A stretch of DNA of 62,979 bases, filler included, from Reclinomonas americana ATCC 50394 (GCA_048213135.1; 5 parts of 3 records of this genome joined end to end with filler, not necessarily neighbours in it), one strand, 5' to 3'. Counted from the first letter of the whole stretch, positions 3,286-62,979 are shown. Numbers and translations are program-made. Notes: generated by a model from the letters alone, not told the origin.

Positions 3286-6200
3286 ATGTCGGTGCGTGGT
3301 TCTTGGTGCTTCTTTGCTTCTCATACGTTACTCCCTCCTCTCTCTCTCTCTTCTGTCTCTCTCTTTCTCCGTGTGCGTATTTGTGTGCGTGTTGTGCGCT
3401 CGTTTGTGTGTGTGTGTGAGCGAGCGTGTGTCTGTGTGATTTTGTGTGTGTATGTGTGTTTGTGTTTGTTTGCGCGGCGTGTGTGTGTGTGTGTATGTGT
3501 GTGTGCGACTATTCCTCACTCGTTGTTTTCGTGTGTTGCGTGACAGTTCTCTGTGCGAGTGAGTGCGGCGCATGATTCGTCGCTGTCGGTGGTGGTGGAG
3601 GGTATGTCGCTCGCGTCCACTCTTGCGGACTTGCTGCGCGAGGCCACGCGCTTGCTGCGTGAGAAGAGTGGAGATAGGGAGATGGTGATTGTGGGGTTGG
3701 AGAAGCCGCTGCCACTCAACACTGAGGAGGGCGGAGGCATTCCGCTTCGCATATTGGGCATCAACACATCCACGCACCTTGTTGTCCGTGTGACGCTTGG
3801 TGTGGCACTGCAGTCGAGTGGAGGGAGTGGAAAGTGTGTGCCTTGATGTGCCATCGTCTGTGCAAACATGCAACTCACTCTCATGTCCAACAGCAACTCG
3901 GAGAGAGTGACTCGGTTTGTTTTGCTTGCTTGCCTTCGCCATCCTTCTCTCTCCCTTCCTTGGTCTTCACTCGAATCGAGTCGGTGCTGACTGCGTTTGC
4001 CTGTACCCATAGCATGATCGACTCACAGCGCATCAACATGGCCTTTGAGGTGGTGGAGGATGCCGTGCGTCTGCGCTGTCGATGCGCACTGGCACAGTTC
4101 GGTCGCGAAAATCCCGACTTTGATGTGCGGGCCTGGGCAGTGGATTTGTGGGCTCCGAGGATCGATTTTAGTGACTTGTCAGTCCGCGTTCCCAGATCCT
4201 GGGTTCCACCGCTGTCGCTGTATTATTCGGCATTTGCTGCATGGCGTGAACGACATGCTCCACTCCGCTCTGGGCGAGTCATGCTGTCCAAGGAGAAGCA
4301 GTTGGTGGTGTTGGTCTGGCGTGCTGCGTTCGAAGCCGACCCCTCTTCCTACCCTCCGTGTGACGGTTTCGACACGACGGCACTCACTTCCATCATGCTG
4401 TATGGTGGTTTCGTTCATGATAACGGTCGCAAGCTCCTGCTGATTGACGATGCAGATGAACGCAAGGCTGTGGAGAAGCTGCGTGACGTGAGAAATGAGA
4501 TGGTGCACGGTTCGTTAGTGTGGACGGATGCCGCTGTGCAGCAATACCTTGGCGACGGTGGCGTTTTCCTCTCCATCCTCTCTCGCCTTTGGTTGACGGC
4601 CGACGAATTCTCTCGATTCACTGCTCGTGTCCGTGAGGCACGTTATGTCCAGCTTACTGTCAGCACATTCGAGGAGCGGCTGCATCGACTGGCTGTGCGT
4701 GAGCTGTCTTTCTACCAGCACGACGAGAGTGTGCGCAAGGACATGCAGATGTATGTGCCACTGCTGTGCTCACGTGAGCGAGACGTCTCATCGAAAGACA
4801 AGATGACGGATCTGCTGACGGAAGTGGATGCTTTCCTCTCCGATTCCAGCACCACACAGCGTGTGTTGGTGCTCTTTGGCAACAGTGGTGCCGGCAAGAC
4901 CACCACCATGTCGGTGCTGGCCAAGCAAGCCTGGCGACAGTGGCAAACAAGAGAGAGCAGACGAGTGCCTGTGCGTGTGCCTCTCGGTGCACTGCGCAAT
5001 GCCGATGAGCGATTGTTGGAGGAGGCACTGGAGCGATTGTCACCCGAGTTGGGATTCTGCGAGGCGGATGTGCGACGATTGAAGGATGAGCCACTGCTAT
5101 TGTTGCTCGACGGGTACGATGAGTTGTATCGTGGTGTGAATCTGTTTGTCAAGAACCACCTGGATGTGTGTCGTGATGTGAAGGTGATTGTCACTTGTAG
5201 AGGCGATTACGCACTGACGGCATTGGGTGGTGTGACGCAGCATCGACGATACTTTGCGCCAGTGGACGCACGAGGACAGTTGTGCATGCAGCAGCTGATG
5301 GAGCAACACATTGCTCCGTTCAACAAGGAGCAGATTGAGGAGTACTTTGAGCGACTGGTGCTAGTGGGCGGTGATGGTGAAGTGCGATGGTCGACTGTCG
5401 AGGAGTACATTCGTGCACTGAAGAGTGTGCATGGAATGGATGCACTGGTGTCGAATCCGTTCCTTCTGGCAGTGGTGGCTCGCGTGTTGCCTGAGTTGGT
5501 GGCGAGTGGCGTGCAGCGACCGACGCGGTGTGATGTGTTTGACCGTTTCATTCGAAAGTGGATAGAAAGGGAGCAGGAGAGGCAGACGCGTCTCGGTGCC
5601 AGGTATGAGGAAGATGAGGATAGGTGTCTGGCATTCTGCGAGGGACTGGCACGGTTGATGCATGAGAGGAATGTGGTGCGTGCGTCGGTGACGGAGAGTC
5701 GATCAGATTATAGTCGGGCGGAGGATGACTTTGGTGGTGCGCCACTCGCCTTGCGACGAGTAGAAGAAGGACCATTTGACAAGTTCCTCTGCCAGAAGAA
5801 CCAGCATGTGCGAGTGTGCTGTCCGATTGTGCGACGGTATGGAACGACGCAGTGGGGATTTGTGCATCTGTCGTTGCTGGAACATTGTGTGGCACGACAT
5901 GTGTTTGCGTGGGAGACGTGGGATGAGGGGAGGCGGTTGACGGTGCAAGATGTGCAGCAGCATGTGCTAGCTGTGCGACTGCTGAATGATAAACCATCGC
6001 TGGTGGAGCAGATGGCCGAGGTGGTGCGACGAACTCCCCGACTGCAGGAGAGACTGTGGGAGGTGATTGAGTTGTCACGAGAGGTGGATGAGGAGCGAGT
6101 GGTGACGGCGGCAGCGAATGCAGCGACTGTGTTGTGTGTGGCACAAGTGTCGTTCAGTGGGCGGGATCTGTCGGGTGTGCGAGTGAGGGGTGCGGATTTG

Positions 6201-8180
6201 AGGGATGCGGTGATGCACAGGACGGTGTGGAGGGGGGCGGATTTGCAAAAGGTGAATGTGTGTATGGCATACGCGAGGGAGGCGGATTTCACGGATGCCG
6301 ATGTTACGGGTGTGAAGTGGCCGCGGAAGCCATTGAAGGAACACACTCAATGGGTAAACTGTGTCGCTGTCACCGCTGATAGTCAATACTGTCTGAGTGG
6401 GAGTGAGGACAAGACTGTACTTGTGTGGTCGGTGGCAAGTGGCAAGGTGGTACGTCTGTTCGAGGGACATACTTACTGGGTGCTGTCGGTCACAGTTACT
6501 ACCGACGGTCAATATGCTGTGAGCGGGAGTGCAGACAAGACTGTGCGAGTGTGGTCCATGGAGAGTGGGGAGGAAATGTATCAATTGGTGGGACATACTG
6601 GAAATGTGTGCTCAGTCGCAGTGACTCCCGACAATCAGTATGTTGTCAGCGGGAGTGCCGACAAATCAATACGAGTATGGTCACTGGCGAGCGGGGAGGA
6701 GGTACGACGGCTGGAAGGACACACTGGTGTTGTGCGGTCTGTGGCAGTTGCAGTCGTAGACAGTGTTCCATACGTTGTTTCCGGAAGCTTGGACGCGACG
6801 GTTCGAGTGTGGTCACTTGTGAGCGGACAGCAATTACGACGATTTGTGGGACACACTGACAAGGTGATGTCTGTCTCCGTTACTCCCGATTGCCACACCA
6901 TCGTGAGTGGGAGTCGGGACAAGACTATTCGCGTGTGGTCACTGGTAACTGGGGAGGAGGTGCGACGACTTGAGGGCCACGACGGTGCTGTATTTTCGGT
7001 TTGTGTCACGCTTGATGGTCAACATGTATTGAGCGCCGGCAGCGACAAAACCGTACGAATGTGGTCCCTTGTGAGTGGAGAGGAAGTTCAGCGGTATGAA
7101 GGACACACGGCCGTGGTACAGTGCGTCACTGTCTCTCCCGATGGTCAGCTCACAGTTAGTGGAGGTCGTGACAATACTGTCCGACTGTGGTCTTTGTCTG
7201 GTGAAGAAACAGTGCGGCGCATAGGGGGTCACACCGCGTGGGTAGCGGCTATTGCTGTCACTCCCGATGGTCAGCATATTGTCAGTGGCAGTGACGACAA
7301 AACAGTGCGGGTATGGGCACTTGCAACTGGTGAGGAAGTGCGACGGTTTGTAGGCCACAGTAATTGGGTAAAAACTGTTGCTGTTTTCCCTGATAATCAG
7401 CATGTTGTGAGTGGGAGTGATGACACGACGGTCCGAGTGTGGTCACTTGCTAGCGAAAAAGTGCGACAATTGACGGGCCACGTCGGTTCAGTGCGGTCTC
7501 TTGCCGTCACCCGTGATGGGCTGCATATTGTGAGTGGGAGTGATGACAAGACGATGCGAGTGTGGTCTGTGGAGTGCGGGCAGGAATTGCGACGGTTGGA
7601 AGGACACGACGGTGCGGTGCTCACTGTCGCCATCGCTCCTGATGGGCGGCATGTTGTGAGTGCCAGTGCGGACCGCACCGTGCGTGTGTGGTCACTGGCA
7701 AGTGGAGAAGAATTACGACGGTTGGAGGGGCACTCTGCTGGGGTGTACACTGTCACCATCTCTCCCGATGGTGAACACGTTGTCGGTGGGAGTACGGACA
7801 AAACAATATGCATTTGGGCCTTGGCGAGTGGACAGGAAGTGGGGCGATTTGAGGGATTCTCTAGAGCGGTGTGGTCAACGATGTCCACGTCTCTCGGGCA
7901 ACAAATTGTGAATGTGGCATCGGGTTTGTGGACTCTGGCGAGTACGAGTGTAGAGTCGAAGCGCAGCTTGGTGGGCCTCGTTCACAAAAGCTTCTATGTA
8001 TCGCCGTGCGATTGTGCACAAGCAGGCGCTGAAGATCTTGTGCATTCGCGCGGCCCGGAATTGGACGAAGTGAGTGTGGACTGGTATGGCAAAGCAGTTT
8101 TCGTGATGCGTGGTCGCCTTGTTGTAAGCATTCTTGGTTCTGTGACACCAAGCCTTGTTGACGCAATTATGAATGAATGA
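3286..8180 (+). CDS. NLR-like STAND protein: ubiquitin-like domain - HEPN - NACHT - pentapeptide repeats - about 12-13 WD40 repeats (about 1493 aa)
   Basis: Phase-consistent GT-AG exons 3286-3291, 3547-3833, 3894-3914 and 4013-8180. Walker A GNSGAGKT (~4878), Walker B LLLLLDGYDE, KVIVTCR sensor, NPFLL, FVHLSLLEH, AAANAATVL followed by pentapeptides, and 42-aa GH...VRVW repeats. FDTTAL...LRDVRNEMVH is a HEPN-like motif. Confidence 0.9.
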
Positions 8181-30526: not shown

Positions 30527-31328
30527 TCATGAAGATCCCGCTGCAGCCGACGCTAATCCTCCAGCGTCTACGACGCCGACGCCAGCTGCCGAGTCGCACA
30601 ATCGCTTCAATTCGTCGAGCACATACGACGCCGACACGCGCGTTGCTTGCGGCCTCTGCACCGTTACACGCACAATTAGCATATCACCACAAATTTCCCC
30701 ACCGGTGTGTCAGCACGCAACCCAGCACTGTCGAATCAAGTTGCGAATGTCCTCTGGCACTTCTGCTCGCACACTCTGGTCGTCAAGATCGCCAGGCGGA
30801 ACGCCGTCATGCATACGACGCATGATAGCTGGCGTTGCTACTCCACGGTATGGCTCATGTCGAGTGGAGATGAACCAAAGCAGCGAGCCGAGACCGTACA
30901 CATCCGCCCGCTCGTCGTACTGTACGTGAGGGCGGAACAGAAGCGTGATTGGCCCTACACAGCCAGAATAGAGAAATCTAGTACTAACCTCCTGGTCCAG
31001 CATGGTCTCTGGCGCAGCATACGCCATCGTGCCGTGGTTTGATTGCATTTTGCCGAGTGTGCCGTGAATCTTGGCCTCGCCAAAGTCGCACACCTTGGCG
31101 ACGAGTCGGTCCTCGCTGATGAGAATGTCTGCAGAGATTCAGAGAGAATTAAACAAGGAACGATCGTTGGGAAAAGAGGTGAATACAAAGATCAACTCTG
31201 CAGTCTGCACCGCCACGACCGAATCAGTGTACGATAAACGCAACGGAATTCTCTTATAGATCTATATCTCTCCCTTCAGTTCTCTTGATTTCAATATCTT
31301 TCCCATCCACTCTATTCTCACCATGTCT

Positions 31329-31364
<36 letters not shown>

Positions 31365-32023
31365 TTTTACTTGCTACCTTTCTCCTCTTCCCACAAGTCT
31401 GACGCAACTCTGCGGCTTAAGATCACGATGGACCACTCGGCGCGAGTGCATGTAGACCACAGCGGACGCCACTTGCAAGAGTAGAGAGAGAAGGTGCTCT
31501 GTCATCACGTGCTGATCTTTCACCAGGTCATACAGCGTCTCGGCGGTGCCCCCAACATCATCGTGGCCGACGTACTCAAGAACGAGTCCGAGACCACTCG
31601 GGTCGTTCTCGCACACGGCCAGCAGTTTCACAATGTGCGGATGACTGCGAAAAGCTCATGAGTGACAGCGGTCAGCATGCAAGTGCTGCAATCACGGAAG
31701 CACAACTCAAGTTGCATTAGCAGTGCGTGCTCGTTTTCGAAGCAGTCATGGACGCGTTTCCAGTCCGGTGATCGAGACTTCTTCGCTTTTTGCTTGACCT
31801 GGTACCGTTTGTACGCTACAGTTTGCAATGCACCGCCGAGACGCAGCGTAGCATGAAAAACAGCGTTTTGCCCTGAGCGCGTGGCGTAGGAGAGAGATAT
31901 AAGGAACTTTCTGGTCTGCGTTGACAAAGCGATGCACAAACCGACGGCGAGCTGTCCGGCCATGGGTGAGATTCGAATCTCCTTTGGCAGCACAAGCGGT
32001 GCGCGAACGGCGAATTGCTCCAT
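30527..32023 (-). CDS. tyrosine-kinase-like (TKL) protein kinase, 6 exons; possibly the 3' part of the upstream HEPN receptor gene
   Basis: The spliced product has VAYK, FENE, LDHPHIVKLL, LVLEY, HRDLKPQNIL, KVCDFG, GTMAYAAPE, ADVYGLG and LIRQCW. All catalytic motifs are present. Confidence 0.9.
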
Positions 32024-32584
32024 TTTGCGTCAGCAACATGGATTTTGCGAGTCTGAAGTACTCGCTCATTGTCATTCGCTTTTCAGCCTCGTTTTGTTTG
32101 TGTTCTTGTGAGAACCCCTCCCTTCCCGCCCTCTCGTTCTTCGTACCAGTGCAGCCTCGTTTTGTTTGTCGAGAGGCATGCTTCTCGTCGAGCTGGCTCA
32201 TCGCTCGCCTGCTTCGCCTTCAACCCGCTTCGGTCCACTCCAACACCTTCGATTCCGGCAACAACATTCCGACCGGTCAACATCGCCCGTGCGGCCACCG
32301 GCCGCCCCACTGCATTCGTGCTACGGCACTTCCCGCTTCGCACCAACTCGAGTCAGGTGCCTTCAACTACGCCTTGGTCCCTGGCCTTCCACTCCTTTGG
32401 CCTTATCCTGGACCCTCCGCTTTACGGACAATTCACCGAGTGGTTACTTTTTGTAACGCCGCCTATGACGACGTCAACTACGATTTCCGCAACAACACTT
32501 CCGACGACGACTGCCCGGGCATCGTCTTCCAACGTGACCTCAACTACGACAACGCTCTTCGACCACTCTCCGATTCCGCCTGCC

Positions 32585-35500
32585 TTACCAGAGGTTTCTA
32601 ATTAGAGTTCCAATCTGTATGGAGTTGATTATTTAGATTGGAGTCTCACAAGACACACGAGCTTACGAGTGAAACCCTTATCTTTCTGGTACGAAAGAAC
32701 GAGCAAATTCGATACTCTCTCCGTCACCAACTCGGCCGTCACGTTAATGCGACTCACATCTGTATCAGTGAAGAATGAGTTGGAAGAATGAAAAAACAGC
32801 AAGTTGCAAGTGTGTGTCGCAACTGTCATATGCTTGGAACAACAGACGGATGCTTTCGTGTTTCCCGTCGGGGAACAACGAGTGGAGAGAGTTACGAACC
32901 AGTCGCATGATGCCTACATACTCTGCATCTTCGAGCTCAGACAGGCGGGCCAGGTGTGACAGGCGATGTCTCACATCCCGCAAATTCTCCACGGCTCGAA
33001 TCTGTATTGCAGAGCACCCAGTGAGAAGTGACTGGCACGCCTGTAGGTGTCTGTGAGAGCTTACCTTGGATTCATCTGCGAGCAAGCGAACCGCGAGTCG
33101 GTCTTCGTTCGTGACATGATCGAGGCGGACGAGACTCTCCAGCAAATCCACATCCCGACACACGCGAGCAGGAACATAGGTGATGTACAGTAGCATTGTG
33201 CTCAGTTGCGAAACGTCCATGCCCGTGGTCACTCCACTCCTCTTGAACTCTCGCACTGCTTCGTAATTTGAAGGAAATAACTCGACGGAGCGCATGCGAA
33301 TGTTGCCACGCTTGTCCACAGTCATTCGACAATATCTGTGAGGCAGATTGAGCGCAGGAGACACATCACACGCAGGCAGCCCCTACACCAGCACCTCGGT
33401 GGTGGAGTTGGGAGACAGAGAAGCTCAATGTCGAATTCGTCAGGGAAGAATCCGGCGATGAGCTGTTGCAGGAGAGAGCCCAGGGCCAGCGGGATGATCT
33501 CATGTACAACTTCCGTGAGCATGAGAATGGGACGGCGGTCGCTGTGCATGTGACAAAAATCAGAACAAGTAACAGGCAAGAATACGGATCGGCAGGCACC
33601 TGAGGAAGTCCATGTGAAAGAGAGCTCGCAGCTGCAGCTCTAACAACTCAGCCTTTTGTCTCCACTCGTCGCGTTCGGCGGCGGCTGTGGCAAGATACGA
33701 GCGGAGGGTGTCGCATACAACCGTTGCAGATGTGTGCTCAAATTCGAGTTGATTGTTGTGGTTATCGGCAGTCTGGAAGGAGTCGGCATTCACCGCGGGA
33801 GACGATACACACAAAGTGAGCACAAACTGAATTGGCGCTGTAACTTGAATGCGAGCTCACCAAACACGGTGGCAGATGGGTTGACTGCCAGCGTTGCCAG
33901 CATCGGCAAAATAGCAGGCAACTGACGAAGAGGGCGACGGGAGCGGCCAACATGATGGCAAATGCAGTGGGCGAGTGCCAGTCTTGCCAAGTGGGAGTGG
34001 GAAAAGTCTGAAATGCGTTGGCAAGCCACTCACAGAGAGACGACCAGAAAGTCACACCAGAGAAGGGCTCGGGAATAAAGTAATCATCTTTTGCGACAAG
34101 CGACAATTTTGCGCTTTCGTGCTTATGCTGCTCGGCAAACACGCCAATAACGGGCAAGCAGTTATCAGTCATACTATCAATTGCTGCAGCCACAGCCGCC
34201 ACAATAGCCTGCTTGCCGTCAGGACGAAGTAATTCATCAACCGACGGCCCCCCAATAGAGGTGACGCCACCGGTTACCACGGCTCCAATTGCAAATCCGT
34301 CAGCTTCGTCTGCTGCTTCTAAAGGCAGCAGCGGACGCACGTCAGCGCTGCCACTATTGACGCTCTCTGCTGCAGTCGAGCTCGTCTGGGAAGCTGTCAC
34401 CTCCCCTCCCTCGACGGCCGTGCGCGTCATCGCCTCTCCGTCAACGGGGTCCCCCTCAGCTGCATCTGCCAACAGCTCACGGCCAGTGCGCAGCGATTCG
34501 TCAACCGATGAGCCACCACTCATCGGCGATGTGTCGTCACTCACGGCCCAATTAGCCGGTGCGTCAACCACACCAGCTGTATCATCCAGCAGCGGCGGTC
34601 GTAAGGCAGCACCGCCGATCTTGTCACTATCCGATCCTGTCGGTGCATCCACCTGACTCGTCTGCGTGGGAGTTGCCTCTCCTGCGTCGAGCGTCGGCGC
34701 AGCAATGTGCGTATCGTGTGGTAAGTCATCGCCGCCAATCGTTGAAGTCTCAGTCTGCGGCGAATCAATTCCGGTAGCTGCTGTCTCAGAACTCGCTGAC
34801 ACTCCGAAGTGATGATGACCTGCAGCGAGCTGCTGTGCAGGAACCACGACAATCGACTCTGCCGGCTGCACATTGTCACCTTGTGCCAATGACCACACTC
34901 GCACTGTGTTGTCATAACTTCCGCTAATTAGTTTTGACCCGACGGTGAATGTGACAGGATGCAGCTCCTTGACCCTTGACCCTTAACCCGGGGGCCCCTA
35001 CCCTTGACCCTTTGCTCTTGACCGTTGGCTTCCTGGGCCCTTGACCCTTAACCCGAGTGTGGGGCAAAAGTTGTGTCTTGCGCAAGTCGCGAAATGTAAG
35101 TAGAGACTCCGATTTGCATGACCAACTGTCGCAGTGCATCTTCACATTACTAGATACAATGTGCTGGCCATCGGGAGTCATGGCAACTGACTGCACCCAA
35201 TGAGTGTGTTCTTTCAGCTGATGGATTTCTTTTCCACTCGCCAGTGACCACACTCGCACTGTGTTGTCAACACTTCCGCTTACAGCATACTTACCATCGC
35301 TTGAGATGGCGACAGAGAACACCGTATTGTCGTGCTTGCCAACCACTCTGCACACGGGTCGGAAGGCGTGCGTGAGAGTACCTCGAAACACAAATTGGCG
35401 GACAGCCATACAACGCACTCAAACGCATCTGTGTGAATTCTCACTCTCTCTCTCTGTATGTGTGTGTGGGTGTGCGTCTCCTAATCTTCATGACTCACTG

Positions 35501-35600
35501 ACCTCGATTTTGTGATAATCTCCGGTTCACCCAAGGCCATGCACACACACACGGCAATCACCACGCATGTCACCACCAACACACGCATCGGCTGCTGCAT
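32585..35600 (-). CDS. type I membrane receptor: signal peptide - 2 WD40 - Ser/Thr/Ala/Asp-rich stalk - TM - coiled coil - HEPN-like domain (disrupted by a 226-bp insertion)
   Basis: Phase-consistent GT-AG exons 35600-35503, 35347-33861, 33772-33600, 33541-33395, 33335-33065, 33001-32824, 32759-32659 and 32614-. Signal MQQPMRVLVVTCVVIAVCVCMALG; TM AFAIMLAAPVALFVSCLLFC; HEPN-like MDVSQLSTMLL...VENLRDVRHRLSH. Confidence 0.75.
34924..35152. mobile_element. 226-bp insertion flanked by a CTA/TAG direct repeat, containing CCCTTRA telomere-like motifs
   Basis: It splits a WD40 repeat. Removing 226 bp restores the frame (HIVSSGSYDNTVRVW). Confidence 0.6.
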
Positions 35601-35811: not shown

Positions 35812-36358
35812 CGCATCAATCCGCCCGACCCACCTGCACCATGCAGTGCGCCGGCCACGTCAAGTATCGATACAGGAACGCCGGAATGGCAAAGCTGCAG
35901 GCGATAGTAAGAAAACACCCTCATTTGCGCCCGATATGCACGTGATTTTTGAAGCGCTCCCACATTTCTCTGTACGGCTCACCCCCCCTCCCCCCTCCTC
36001 CACCCGCCTCACCTATACCGCGGCACACCCAACCGCTTGGCAGCTGCATTGCACTCCTCCAACCGCCCACCCTTGCTCCACCCAAACTGCCGCAAATACT
36101 CCACCGGCTCCGACGTGCCAAACAAAATCGGATGATTGCGATCGCGCATGGCCTTCAGGTACACGCTGTTGAACGAGTGCTCGATCATCGGCTGCGCGCA
36201 ACGGGGAGGGTGAGGACAGAGGGGGGAGGCTGAGAGGGGGGCGGGAAGCGCACCTTGTTGACAAAGTCGCACACCAACTGACTACCGCGCGGGGACATGG
36301 CGGCCGTCGTCGCCAGCGTGTCCTTCACCAGTGCCTCGGGGAGGTACATGAAGACGCC
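35812..36358 (-). CDS. LCM-family SAM-dependent methyltransferase, 3' exons
   Basis: GVFMYLPEALVKDTL...PRGSQLVCDFV and FGTSEPVEYLRQFGW. The exact 3' end is uncertain. Confidence 0.75.
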
Positions 36359-38258
36359 CTGCGGAAGGGGGAAGGGGTGAAAGGGGGAAGGGAGAAGGGC
36401 GTTAAAGGAGAAGCGGAAGAAGGGGGAGAAAGGGGGAGGAGGGGAGAATGGGGGAACGAAGAGAAGGGGGGAGAAGGGGAGAAGGGGGGAGAAGGGAGGA
36501 GAAAGGGGGGGAGAAGGGGGNNNNNNNNNNNNNNNNNNNNNNNNNNNNNNNNNNNNNNNNNNNNNNNNNNNNNNNNNNNNNNNNNNNNNNNNNNNNNNNN
36601 NNNNNNNNNNNNNNNNNNNNNNNNNNNNNNNNNNNNNNNNNNNNNNNNNNNNNNNNNNNNNNNNNNNNNNNNNNNNNNNNNNNNNNNNNNNNNNNNNNNN
36701 NNNNNNNNNNNNNNNNNNNNNNNNNNNNNNNNNNNNNNNNNNNNNNNNNNNNNNNNNNNNNNNNNNNNNNNNNNNNNNNNNNNNNNNNNNNNNNNNNNNN
36801 NNNNNNNNNNNNNNNNNNNNNNNNNNNNNNNNNNNNNNNNNNNNNNNNNNNNNNNNNNNNNNNNNNNNNNNNNNNNNNNNNNNNNNNNNNNNNNNNNNNN
36901 NNNNNNNNNNNNNNNNNNNNNNNNNNNNNNNNNNNNNNNNNNNNNNNNNNNNNNNNNNNNNNNNNNNNNNNNNNNNNNNNNNNNNNNNNNNNNNNNNNNN
37001 NNNNNNNNNNNNNNNNNNNNNNNNNNNNNNNNNNNNNNNNNNNNNNNNNNNNNNNNNNNNNNNNNNNNNNNNNNNNNNNNNNNNNNNNNNNNNNNNNNNN
37101 NNNNNNNNNNNNNNNNNNNNNNNNNNNNNNNNNNNNNNNNNNNNNNNNNNNNNNNNNNNNNNNNNNNNNNNNNNNNNNNNNNNNNNNNNNNNNNNNNNNN
37201 NNNNNNNNNNNNNNNNNNNNNNNNNNNNNNNNNNNNNNNNNNNNNNNNNNNNNNNNNNNNNNNNNNNNNNNNNNNNNNNNNNNNNNNNNNNNNNNNNNNN
37301 NNNNNNNNNNNNNNNNNNNNNNNNNNNNNNNNNNNNNNNNNNNNNNNNNNNNNNNNNNNNNNNNNNNNNNNNNNNNNNNNNNNNNNNNNNNTTCTCTCCC
37401 TCCCTCCCTCCCTTTTCCTTCACTCTATCTCTCTCTCTCTCTTTCTCTCCATCTCTCTCTCTCTCTCTAGACACAGCGAAATGAAGAGAAAAAAACACAA
37501 CTACTGGCTTCTCTGGACTCACACAGAAAAGAGGCAACAAGCAAACGAGTACCACCTGGACAGCTTGTCTCTCTCTTTCTGTCTTCACTCTCTCTCTCTC
37601 TCTCTCTTTCTTTCTCTCTCTTCGTCTCTATTTCTCTCGCGCTCACTCTCCTTTTCTTTTTCCTCTCTTTCTCTCTTTTCCTCTCTTTTTCTCTCTCTCT
37701 CTCTTTCTGTCTTTCGCTCTCTCTCTCTATTCGTCTCTGTTTCCTCGCGCTCACTCTCCTTTTCTTTCTCTCTTTCTCTTTTTTCCTCTCTTTTTTCCTC
37801 TCTCGTTCTCTTTCTCTCTTTTCTCTCTTTCTCTCTCTTTGTCTCTTTTTCTCTCATTCTCTTTCTTTTTTTTCTCGCTCTTCCTTCCCCCTCTCTCTCC
37901 CCCCCTTCTCCCCCTCCCCCCTCCTTCCCCCAATNNNNNNNNNNNNNNNNNNNNNNNNNNNNNNNNNNNNNNNNNNNNNNNNNNNNNNNNNNNNNNNNNN
38001 NNNNNNNNNNNNNNNNNNNNNNNNNNNNNNNNNNNNNNNNNNNNNNNNNNNNNNNNNNNNNNNNNNNNNNNNNNNNNNNNNNNNNNNNNNNNNNNNNNNN
38101 NNNNNNNNNNNNNNNNNNNNNNNNNNNNNNNNNNNNNNNNNNNNNNNNNNNNNNNNNNNNNNNNNNNNNNNNNNNNNNNNNNNNNNNNNNNNNNNNNNNN
38201 NNNNNNNNNNNNNNNNNNNNNCCCCTCACCCCCTCCCTTCCCCTTTTCCCTTCTACAG

Positions 38259-60780: not shown

Positions 60781-62979
60781 GGCACGTGTCAGTGCAACGC
60801 CAACTACTACGGCGCGTCATGCAATGTGAACTGTGTGGCAGCCACCACTTGTTCAGGCAACGGCACATGCAAGAGCGACGGTACATGCCAGTGCAACGCC
60901 AACTACTACGGTGCATCGTGCAATGTGAATTGTGTGGCAGCCACCACTTGTTCAGGCCGCGGCACATGCAAGAGTGACGGCACGTGTCAGTGCACAGGAG
61001 ACTACACCAACGCCAGCTGCAACTGCAGTCCGTCTGTGACATGCTCCGGGAAGGGCACATGCAGGACCGACGGTACTTGCCAGTGCACGGGCGATTACAC
61101 TAATGCCAGCTGCAACTGCAGTCCTTCTGTAAAATGCTCTGGCAATGGCACATGCAAGAGTGACGGCACATGTCAGTGCAACGCCAACTACTACGGTGCA
61201 TCGTGCAATGTGAACTGTGTGGCAGCCACTACGTGTTCGGGCCACGGCACGTGCAGGAGCGACGGCACATGCCAGTGTGCAAGTAACTGGAGTGGTGAGT
61301 ATGCAGAACGAGCTCCATTTTTAGCGCATATTGCTCACGTGAAATACGTACAGGTACCTCATGTTCGACTTGCGTTCTAGCAGCGGCGGTTCCTCGCATT
61401 GGGAACGGCCTCTGGTATTCGATTGCATCCAGCAGTGATGGCATCAAACTGGTGGCTGCAGCTGACGGCTACCAGCTCTACACCTCCAGTGACTCCGGTG
61501 CGACGTGGATTGCGCGTGAAACGAACCGGCCTTGGTATTCGGTTGCATCCAGCAGTGATGGTAGCAGATTGGTGGCTGCAGTCAACGGTGGTCAGCTTTA
61601 CACCTCCAGTGACTCTGGTGCTACGTGGACTGCGCGTGAATCGAATCGCAACTGGGTATCGGTGGCATCAAGCAGCGACGGAAGCAGATTGGTGGCTGCA
61701 GTCCAGAATAGTCGGCTGTACACCTCCAGTGACTCCGGTGTTACGTGGATTGCGCGTGAATCGATTCGCGATTGGACATCGGTGGCATCCAGCAGCGACG
61801 GTAGCAGATTGGTGGCTGCATACTACGGTGGGGGTCTGTATACCTCCAGTGACTCTGGTTTTACGTGGATTGCGCGTCAGTCGAGTGGCGATTGGTTTTC
61901 GGTTGCATCCAGCAGTGACGGTAGCAGATTGGTGGCTGCCGTCCTTGGTGGTCTGCTTTACACCTCCAGCGACTCAGGTGTGACGTGGATTGCGCGTGAA
62001 TCGTATCGCGACTGGGCATCGGTTGCATCCAGCAGCGATGGCAGCAGATTGGTGGCTGCGGAACACGGTGGTCGTTTGTACGTCTCCAGGGACTCCGGCG
62101 TTACTTGGACGCCTCGTGAGTCGAACCGCGATTGGAGATCTGTTGCATCAAACAGTGATGGCACCCAACTGGTGGCCGGTGTTTATGGTGGTCAGATTTA
62201 CACACTGACTGTTCTGTGCGATGTGAACTGCGTGGCAGCCACTACTTGCTCAGGCAACGGCACATGCAAGAGCGACGGAACTTGCCAGTGCAACGCCAAC
62301 TATTATGGCACATGGTGCAATGTGAACTGTGTAGCAGCCACAACTTGCTCAGGCAATGGCACATGCAAGAGTGACGGTACATGCCAGTGCAACGCCAACT
62401 ACTACGGTGCATCGTGCAATGTGAACTGTGTGGCAGCCAGTACTTGTTCAGGCCGCGGCACATGCAAGAGCGATGGTACTTGTCAGTGCAACGCCAACTA
62501 CTACGGCGCGTCGTGTAATGTGAACTGTGTGGCAGCCACTTCGTGTTCAGGCCATGGCACATGCAAGAGTGACGGTACATGCCAGTGCAACGCCAACTAC
62601 TACGGTGCATCGTGCAATGTGAACTGCGTGGCAGCCACTACTTGTTCAGGCCACGGCACATGCAAGAGCGACGGTACATGTCAGTGCACAGGCGACTACA
62701 CCAATGCCAGCTGCAACTGCAGTCCGTCTGTGACGTGCTCCGAGAAGGGCGTATGCAAGAGTGATGGTACTTGTCAGTGCACAGGAGACTACACCAATGC
62801 CAGCTGCAACTGCAGTCCGTCTGTGACATGCTCTGGCAATGGCACATGCAGGAGCGACGGGACATGTCAGTGCAATGCCAACTACTACGGCCCATCGTGC
62901 AATGTGAACTGTGTGGCAGCCACTACGTGTTCAGGCAACGGCACATGCAAGAGTGATGGTACGTGTCTGTGCACGGGCG
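60781..62979 (+). CDS. extracellular protein with tenascin-type EGF repeats flanking a 7-repeat Asp-box/BNR beta-propeller; partial at both ends
   Basis: CSGNGTCKSDGTCQCNANYYGASC repeats; a phase-1 intron at 61296-61380; then seven 120-bp repeats WxSVASSSDGSRLVAA...LYTSSDSGxTW (~61411-62210); then more EGF repeats. The frame is open to the window end. Confidence 0.9.

Follow-up and report, generated by a model that had tools for sequence, protein, structure and literature searches.

A predicted single-pass membrane protein of Reclinomonas americana with a candidate HEPN-type cytosolic tail related to the head of an NLR-like protein

We analysed a 62,979-nucleotide stretch of DNA from Reclinomonas americana ATCC 50394 (GCA_048213135.1), hereafter called the window, in which five parts of three records of this genome are joined end to end with filler. 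The window is eukaryotic DNA and contains 6633 N in 27 runs, corresponding to assembly gaps. The gene in question lies on the minus strand at 35600-32629. Its predicted product begins with a segment resembling a signal peptide, continues with a remnant of WD40 repeats, an acidic stalk and one transmembrane helix, and finishes with a cytosolic domain, the tail, that carries an R-H-x3-H motif and is related to the N-terminal domain, or head, of an NLR-like protein encoded elsewhere in the window. The reading that we favour, and to which we would give a little under an even chance, is that of a lineage-specific type-I single-pass protein of about 767 residues with a HEPN-type RNase as its tail, the kinase gene downstream being a separate gene.

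Gene model and predicted protein layout

The original prediction had proposed that small open reading frames (ORFs) in this region are joined by seven phase-consistent GT-AG introns. At the level of the sequence, this gene model was borne out. Eight minus-strand exons give a spliced frame of 2304 nt that is open over 767 codons and closed by a TAA. All seven introns are of the GT-AG type, measure 58 to 181 nt and are consistent in phase, and six of the seven acceptors are CAG. When the introns of the downstream kinase gene are pooled with them, GT-AG boundaries are found in 11 of 11 cases and CAG acceptors in 10 of 11, the sole non-CAG acceptor being the GAG of intron 2.

Exon 1 (35600-35503) carries the ATG and a hydrophobic, signal-peptide-like N-terminus (residues 1-32), and ends at the donor gag/GTCAGT. 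Exon 2 (35347-35146) encodes two WD40 repeats recognised by the Pfam WD40 model. It is followed by intron 2 (35145-34965), which holds a decayed continuation of the WD40 repeats and a 7-nt minisatellite. Exon 3 (34964-33861) encodes a partial WD40 repeat, the acidic stalk, which contains an internal duplication, and, beside the membrane, a Cys-bearing stretch as well as the transmembrane helix itself (about 33965-33897). The whole of this exon is contained in a single ORF of 406 codons (33762-34982), a length that far exceeds chance. Exon 4 (33772-33600), entered in phase 0 and left in phase 2, encodes a cytosolic linker with a short helical stretch, a candidate coiled coil of at most about 20 residues. 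Exon 5 (33541-33395), also consistent in phase, encodes a hydrophobic helical segment ahead of the HEPN-like core and gave no Pfam match. The two halves of the HEPN-like domain are encoded by exon 6 (33335-33065), with the motif G-M-D-x3-L-x3-L-L-Y, and by exon 7 (33001-32824), with the sequence LRDVRHRLSH and the donor aca/GTTGCG. Finally, exon 8 (32759-32629) encodes the C-terminal part and the TAA stop codon (32631-32629).

Codon usage was scored after training on the 1380-codon ORF at 4038-8180, stop codons being excluded. The predicted frame was preferred over the other forward frames in seven of the eight exons of the membrane-protein gene and in four of the five kinase exons. Because of these proportions, the coding signal of the membrane-protein gene can be considered similar to that of the kinase gene, which is confirmed by Pfam. 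The exon that missed was exon 1, which is short and for which the frame test was indecisive. In exon 4 the predicted frame scored top among the forward frames. Exon 5 had the lowest coding signal of the eight, with a score of -0.24 that was the top value among the forward frames, yet below that of one reverse frame.

The donor GTTGCG occurs in three of the 11 modelled introns (minus-strand positions 32823, 31408 and 30721), and two more introns have GTTGTG and GTTAGT. Such GTT-type donors look like a lineage-typical donor variant. The unusual donor of exon 7 is credible because the same hexamer serves at two junctions of the kinase gene, one of which is fixed by the sequence HRDLKPQ/N, the slash marking the junction.

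The order of signal peptide, WD40 repeats, stalk and transmembrane helix, which had also been proposed, held at the level of the gene model. A Kyte-Doolittle hydropathy plot with a 19-residue window gave two peaks, at residues 1-13 and 431-439, which fit a signal peptide and one transmembrane helix. Residues 1-32 begin with basic residues and continue with a strongly hydrophobic core and a cleavage-type site of small residues. Residues 34-127 correspond to WD40 repeats, with a Pfam WD40 score of 53.2 bits for exon 2 as compared to a cut-off of 27 (E 3.2e-14). The stalk (residues 136-400) is rich in Ala, Ser, Gly and Asp and has a net charge of -32. It contains an internal duplication of about 75 residues (internal Smith-Waterman score 62) and is probably disordered. 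The single hydrophobic helix spans about residues 431-457. Since an acidic residue precedes it and arginines follow it, the predicted orientation runs from outside to inside. The cytosolic part would then comprise about 300 residues encoded by exons 4 to 8, of which about 240 make up the helical tail domain.

The WD40 part deserves a closer description. In total, the membrane protein retains two complete repeats and one partial repeat. The repeats of exon 2 share 48-56% identity with the WD40 repeats encoded at 4038-8180. When intron 2 is translated in read-through, the product aligns to intact WD40 repeats as a degenerate continuation of the second repeat, and then runs into the minisatellite (34967-35054), for which Tandem Repeats Finder reported a period of 7, 12.3 copies and the unit CCTTGAC on the plus strand. 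A stretch of 41 nt related to this minisatellite, at 80% identity, is present at 25263-25303. Closure of a beta-propeller takes six or more WD40 repeats. Therefore, with two full repeats and a partial one left and the rest degenerate, the WD40 piece of the membrane protein cannot form a propeller, and it looks like the relic of a longer array.

This remnant is where one has to consider that the locus might be a decaying or never-functional chimera, composed of a WD40 fragment, low-complexity sequence and an ancient copy of the effector domain, which would be open and spliceable on paper and give no stable protein. The survival of two and a half WD40 repeats, next to a degenerate remainder of the array interrupted by the minisatellite, would fit such a chimera, as would the weak coding scores of exons 1 and 5 and the fact that phmmer, word-seeded and metagenome searches returned no database relative. 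Moreover, WD40 repeats are unusual outside the cell. A mere relic is however hard to reconcile with the survival of the 406-codon ORF, with seven canonical introns out of seven, all in phase and producing an unbroken 767-codon frame, with coding scores equal to those of a bona fide kinase gene, or with the intactness of the catalytic-type motif. Overall, we regard a non-functional chimera as quite unlikely.

A domain common to the tail and to an NLR-like protein

The most informative comparison for the tail is provided by the window itself. An intronless gene of 1380 codons on the plus strand (4038-8180) encodes a HEPN-like head, a NACHT domain, pentapeptide repeats and a WD40 array. The head is helical, measures about 265 residues and carries the motif LRDVRNEMVH at 4479-4508. 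The NACHT domain scored 39.3 bits as compared to a Pfam cut-off of 26.7, and the Pentapeptide match had an E-value of 1.3e-6. The WD40 array extends over about 6333-7970, where tblastn gave a dozen overlapping matches to WD40 repeats. From this domain order, a NACHT NTPase followed by a repeat array, the predicted product is an NLR-like STAND protein.

Part of this array (6399-7400, plus strand) resembles WD40 proteins from Planctomycetota, Myxococcota, cyanobacteria and other groups, the identity reaching 56% over 334 residues. In the search made with the array (loci L001-L079), 450 of 545 matched stretches were confirmed. As for the head, Pfam gave no match to PF18738 or PF18731, and no relatives were found either in a protein search limited to 759-2415 residues or in a metagenome scan.

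The cytosolic part of the membrane protein, taken in its spliced form, was compared with the N-terminal 270 residues of the NLR-like protein by Smith-Waterman alignment. The score was 61 over about 130 residues, as compared to 34 ± 5.2 for shuffled sequences, of which 1 in 1000 reached 61. BLASTP of the tail against the head identified two collinear motifs, G-[MF]-D-x3-L-x3-[ML]-L-Y (E 0.038) and A-V-E-x-L-R-D-V-R-[NH]-x3-H (E 0.003). Accordingly, the G-M-D-x3-L-x3-L-L-Y sequence of exon 6 is collinear with G-F-D-x3-L-x3-M-L-Y of the head. Beyond the second motif, the product of exon 8 aligns with the region that follows the motif in the N-terminal domain of the NACHT-WD40 gene. An extended form of the motif, [LIVM]Rx[LIVMYF]R[NDH]xxxH, was found in these two genes only among the 125,954 six-frame positions of the window. 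Between the two conserved motifs, the tail has an insertion of 21 residues relative to the head. Its place matches that of the variable insert of HEPN domains, as given in the legend to Figure 2 of PMC3710099.

Overall, the most likely account of these similarities is that the tail domain and the head of the NLR-like protein are distant paralogues. The head, encoded about 25 kb away, is the sole relative of the tail that our sequence comparisons could detect.

The HEPN assignment and its weight

As marks of a HEPN domain we used an Rx4-6H motif and an all-alpha fold some 100-120 residues long, in which four helices form the core and a variable insert separates helices 2 and 3. According to section 6 of PMC3710099, the arginine of the motif is directly followed by a polar residue, N, D or H. 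The sequence RHRLSH had been located at 32971-32954 in the original prediction, and it is encoded exactly there, within exon 7, as residues 676-681 of the spliced product. Written as R-H-R-L-S-H, it has the published form.

The assignment to HEPN was then approached with queries to the ESM Atlas. For the tail, the top cluster scored 0.90 (HEPN_Swt1 on 20% of its members) and the following ones 0.89 and 0.86 (HEPN_DZIP3 on 11-38%), whereas the clusters obtained with the NLR head scored 0.79 (DZIP3 on 94% of the members), 0.78 (Swt1 on 99%) and 0.75 (DZIP3 on 34%), values under 0.9 counting as leads only. In addition, two CARF_HEPN models of PADLOC touched the NLR head at its motif, with E-values of 0.014 and 0.015 (about 12.5 bits).

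A HEPN_Swt1 profile was built from Planctomycetota, where 44 of 401 genomes were above the Pfam cut-off and 31 loci, giving 31 distinct domains, were taken. The R-N-x-W-A-H motif of this profile falls on the corresponding motif in the alignments with the tail and with the NLR head. With hhalign, the tail gave a P-value of 0.013 over 20 columns located at the motif, the NLR head gave 0.0011 over 49 columns that include both motifs at a similar spacing, and the two aligned together gave 0.00065; these values are modest, and the profile is drawn from one narrow sub-family. With hmmsearch, 17 of 2000 shuffled sequences outscored the tail and 3 of 2000 outscored the NLR head.

The motif, the Atlas neighbours, the Swt1 profile and the NLR head each give weak support, and they converge. 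They make the HEPN reading of the tail plausible, and we would place a HEPN fold somewhat above an even chance. Catalytic competence of the tail must be set lower than the fold. Within the superfamily, the tail and the NLR head would most likely belong to a Swt1/DZIP3-like branch. What the proposed HEPN assignment did not achieve was to reach the threshold of a curated model.

Several results weigh against the reading that we favour. The tail queries were contiguous translations, which include 21 residues encoded by the intron between exons 6 and 7 and lack exon 5. Three such pieces gave no Pfam match at E<=1, HEPN_DZIP3 (PF18738) and HEPN_Swt1 (PF18731) included, and no PADLOC or NCBIfam model matched the tail. 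Using phmmer against 1.84 billion protein representatives, no relative was found at E<=0.001, and a word-seeded protein search returned none at E<=5. A search of PDB sequences (E<=10) gave only a chance match of 12 bits to an expression-tag region. In the ESM Atlas, the scores fall mostly in the range of leads, and the recognition value of the tail was 2059, below the 2300 that is reached by 91 of 100 proteins of known families. The alignments to the Swt1 profile are of motif length (20-49 columns), with P-values of 1e-2 to 1e-3 that are uncorrected for several tests. The 125,954 six-frame positions contain 47 instances of the bare R[NDH]xxxH, a motif that is for this reason weak evidence when taken alone. 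AlphaFold2 without alignment produced unusable models, with a predicted local distance difference test score (pLDDT) of 45.3 for the tail and 38.4 for the NLR head. To these points are added the poor coding score of exon 5 and the decayed state of the WD40 fragment, which hints at a young chimera or at a decaying gene.

Further results on the tail are of the same kind. A scan of metagenome contigs yielded 201 pattern matches, none of which was confirmed. The two low-confidence AlphaFold2 models were mostly helical by DSSP, with a few short strands. A complex prediction with two copies of the tail piece gave a score of 0.00, the fold itself being uncertain.

There is another way to understand the similarity between the tail and the NLR head. 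The gene would be real and its tail would be a helical module for homotypic interaction or an adaptor, common to the NLR head and devoid of nuclease activity, with the Rx4H motif being incidental or a non-catalytic remnant. The membrane protein would recruit the NLR-like protein, or be recruited by it, through the shared module. Indeed, the sole solid relation of the tail is with the NLR head and not with any characterised RNase, the curated HEPN models did not match the tail, and HEPN domains that have no activity and act in binding are described in section 6 of PMC3710099. In contrast, a purely adaptor role would leave several observations aside: both proteins carry the full R-[NH]-x3-H motif, polar at its second position and embedded in a conserved LRDVR sequence, independent Atlas queries with each of them led to HEPN_Swt1 and HEPN_DZIP3, and both align to the catalytic motif of the Swt1 profile. 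We therefore consider the adaptor explanation, together with the recruitment that it implies, as unlikely.

Returning to the HEPN-type RNase, the following mode of action can be proposed. The ectodomain would consist of the signal peptide, the WD40 relic of two and a half blades and the long acidic stalk, and on the cytosolic side a short helical linker would lead to the helical domain of about 240 residues. The tail would be a metal-independent endoRNase acting through R-H-x3-H (residues 676-681), silent as a monomer. Clustering or dimerisation of the receptor, through the ectodomain, the transmembrane helix or the linker, would switch it on, so that RNA would be cut at the inner face of the membrane as a defence or cell-death output.

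A wider proposal brings the two genes together. In one eukaryote, the same HEPN-type RNase module might serve as the output of a single-pass receptor at the surface or in endomembranes and of a cytosolic NACHT-WD40 sensor. The receptor RNase would have arisen independently of Ire1, from Swt1/DZIP3-type rather than KEN domains, would be triggered by clustering and might be tuned by the kinase. TIR or death-fold modules offer a parallel, being common to membrane receptors and NLRs. This proposal is, in our opinion, rather doubtful.

Known HEPN architectures provide points of comparison, for which we rely on selected parts of PMC3710099. DZIP3/hRUL138-like and Swt1/Abi2-like HEPN heads on NACHT/STAND proteins are documented there (Table 1, section 16). 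The animal HEPN heads that it describes are fused to NACHT, DEATH, CARD, LRR or TPR, with lineage-specific expansions of such proteins in Nematostella, oyster and Capsaspora, and bacterial HEPN-STAND proteins are mentioned as well. DZIP3-type and active Swt1-type HEPN domains are listed as expanded in a lineage-specific manner in several eukaryotes (PMC3710099, Table 1, sections 9 and 16). The gene at 4038-8180 has the same composition, with a helical head bearing R-N-x3-H followed by NACHT and repeats. The tail resembles these proteins as a distant paralogue of this head, and the Atlas neighbours of both are HEPN_DZIP3 and HEPN_Swt1. It differs from them in that both tail and head are below the Pfam thresholds of PF18738 and PF18731, and in that the tail is the intron-split C-terminus of a membrane protein, whereas the documented heads belong to STAND proteins.

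In terms of layout, a counterpart is found in bacteria. Section 15 of PMC3710099 describes HEPN domains of the Abi2/Swt1 family that are C-terminal to a single transmembrane helix with an external domain, for example of the Salmonella STY4199 type, and its authors propose that these proteins couple surface stimuli with RNA degradation. As in the model of the Reclinomonas protein, an external part is followed by a single transmembrane helix and this by a HEPN-type domain on the cytosolic side, the Rx4H motif being intact. A Swt1-type branch is suggested for the tail, and stimulus-dependent RNA cleavage at the membrane is proposed for both. The tail gene is however eukaryotic and intron-rich, and where the bacterial proteins have a conserved helical ectodomain, its product has an apparently cleavable signal peptide, the relic of WD40 repeats and an acidic, mucin-like stalk. 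Beyond the motif, phmmer and hmmsearch showed no sequence relation between these bacterial proteins and the tail. Overall, the gene probably represents known HEPN effector architectures in a new, membrane-anchored version, our literature survey not having been aimed at excluding an earlier eukaryotic receptor that joins a transmembrane helix to a Swt1/DZIP3 HEPN domain.

If the tail is an active HEPN RNase, the gene would encode a membrane receptor that cleaves RNA directly, in a eukaryote and without kinship to Ire1. One and the same genome would then use an effector head of the NLR type a second time, on a transmembrane protein, and the coupling of surface sensing with RNA degradation that has been proposed for the bacterial transmembrane HEPN proteins would extend to eukaryotes. 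The switching-on of HEPN effectors could be studied with a simple, testable pair, one partner being a membrane protein and the other an NLR-like protein, both with this head. Should the tail not be a HEPN domain, or the gene be a relic, the locus would be nothing more than the usual outcome of domain shuffling in a rapidly evolving gene family of the immune type.

The downstream kinase gene and other features of the window

The original prediction further placed an intact TKL (tyrosine-kinase-like) kinase about 560 bp beyond the HEPN-like domain, on the same strand, and suggested a coupling of the two in the manner of Ire1 and RNase L. A protein kinase gene was indeed found on the minus strand at 32023-30527. 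It comprises five exons (32023-31707, 31644-31409, 31128-30989, 30919-30722 and 30655-30527) and 339 codons. Two pieces of it matched Pkinase (PF00069) with 51.1 and 42.5 bits, as compared to a cut-off of 31.7. The motifs VAYK, HRDLKPQN, DFG and APE are present. None of the three glycines of the glycine-rich loop is in place, however, and the distance is 605 bp. With regard to the TKL assignment, the closest PDB sequences to the C-lobe are TAK1/MAP3K7 (E 8e-8) and MAP3K12, whereas the N-lobe exon matched mixed kinase groups. A TKL-like kinase is thus suggested, which does not amount to a classification.

The 605-bp spacer (32628-32024, minus strand) separates the TAA of the membrane-protein gene from the ATG of the kinase gene. 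It showed no Pfam match and no repeat copy elsewhere in the window. The kinase frame opens at 32029 after an in-frame TGA, two codons upstream of the ATG at 32023. On the plus strand, two overlapping ORFs cover the spacer (31903-32601 and 32057-32605; 232 and 182 codons). They were considered as a third gene and rejected: with no Pfam match and with negative codon scores (-0.27 to -0.36), they are probably compositional.

We then asked what would be required for a single gene. A clean splice path from the HEPN-like domain to the kinase had not been reconstructed in the original prediction. Such paths do exist: among the GT..AG pairs leading from exon 8 to the first kinase exon, 49 of 112 are phase-compatible. 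For example, a donor at 32649 (ctt/GTGAGA) and an acceptor at 31915 (CAG/acc) would define a 733-nt intron and let the tail run directly into the beginning of the kinase domain. Because 49 of 112 is the chance expectation, these paths neither support nor exclude a fusion. The 733-nt intron would have 2.6 times the length of the longest intron among the 11 modelled. Two genes are the simpler model, and the kinase located 605 bp downstream looks like a separate gene.

A single unit of HEPN-like receptor and kinase, be it as a fusion across a long intron or as an obligate pair, is to our mind very unlikely. Such a unit would have been assembled independently along the lines of Ire1 and RNase L, with the HEPN domain before the kinase. 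The same strand, the short distance of 605 bp and the canonical, phase-compatible paths such as 32649 to 31915 would agree with it, and the degenerate glycine loop of the kinase is presumably reminiscent of the RNase L pseudokinase. These points are outweighed by the in-frame TAA of the tail gene and by the ATG of the kinase with a TGA two codons ahead, by the chance-level number of compatible pairs, and by an intron so much longer than any other in the two genes. No KEN or Ribonuc_2-5A match was found. Neither was a fused relative, as phmmer and the word-seeded search returned no relative of any kind. In eukaryotes, moreover, gene adjacency is a weak sign of shared function. The proposed coupling of the kinase to the tail gene is accordingly left unsupported, adjacency being what the analogy with Ire1 and RNase L comes down to.

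The comparison with these two proteins is nevertheless useful for the membrane protein taken with its HEPN-type tail. In Ire1 and RNase L, a KEN-type HEPN domain is C-terminal to a kinase or a pseudokinase (PMC3710099, Table 1), and back-to-back dimers are described in this context in the part of PMC4536996 used here. The tail gene is similar to Ire1 in that it encodes a membrane protein with a cytosolic candidate HEPN-type RNase, for which activation by dimerisation is a natural hypothesis, and in that a kinase gene adjoins it. In contrast to both, the HEPN-like domain precedes the kinase and is separated from it by a stop, the two being encoded in different reading frames, and the nearest HEPN families of the tail are Swt1 and DZIP3, not KEN. 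Similarity to KEN, Ribonuc_2-5A, Ire1 or RNase L was found neither by Pfam nor by the PDB sequence search (E<=10). Since the defining fusion of kinase and HEPN domain fails, the tail gene is not a member of the KEN/Ire1 family. Outside that family, by analogy, it may still work in an Ire1-like mode, as a membrane-tethered RNase activated by clustering.

Other features of the window were recorded. Just upstream of the membrane-protein gene, short exons of another gene lie on the minus strand at 36009-36400, beside a proline/CT-rich low-complexity tract and a gap of 871 N; Pfam gave no match with the one piece of them that was scanned. A segmental duplication of about 5.3 kb (38881-44149 and 49587-55297), 76-81% identical, is built of diverged units of about 1.1 kb. 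At least five ORFs in it belong to an unnamed family marked by an L-S-E-A-E-I ... W-C motif, and the four that were run against Pfam gave no match. Two segments are of the housekeeping type, namely a BCCIP exon on the minus strand at 1475-2032 (E 3e-30) and a ferric-reductase NAD-binding segment on the plus strand at 47057-47644 (E 1.2e-5). Finally, Teneurin-type EGF repeats are encoded on the plus strand at 60781-61380 (EGF_Teneurin, E 3.1e-29), with further Cys-rich repeats downstream.

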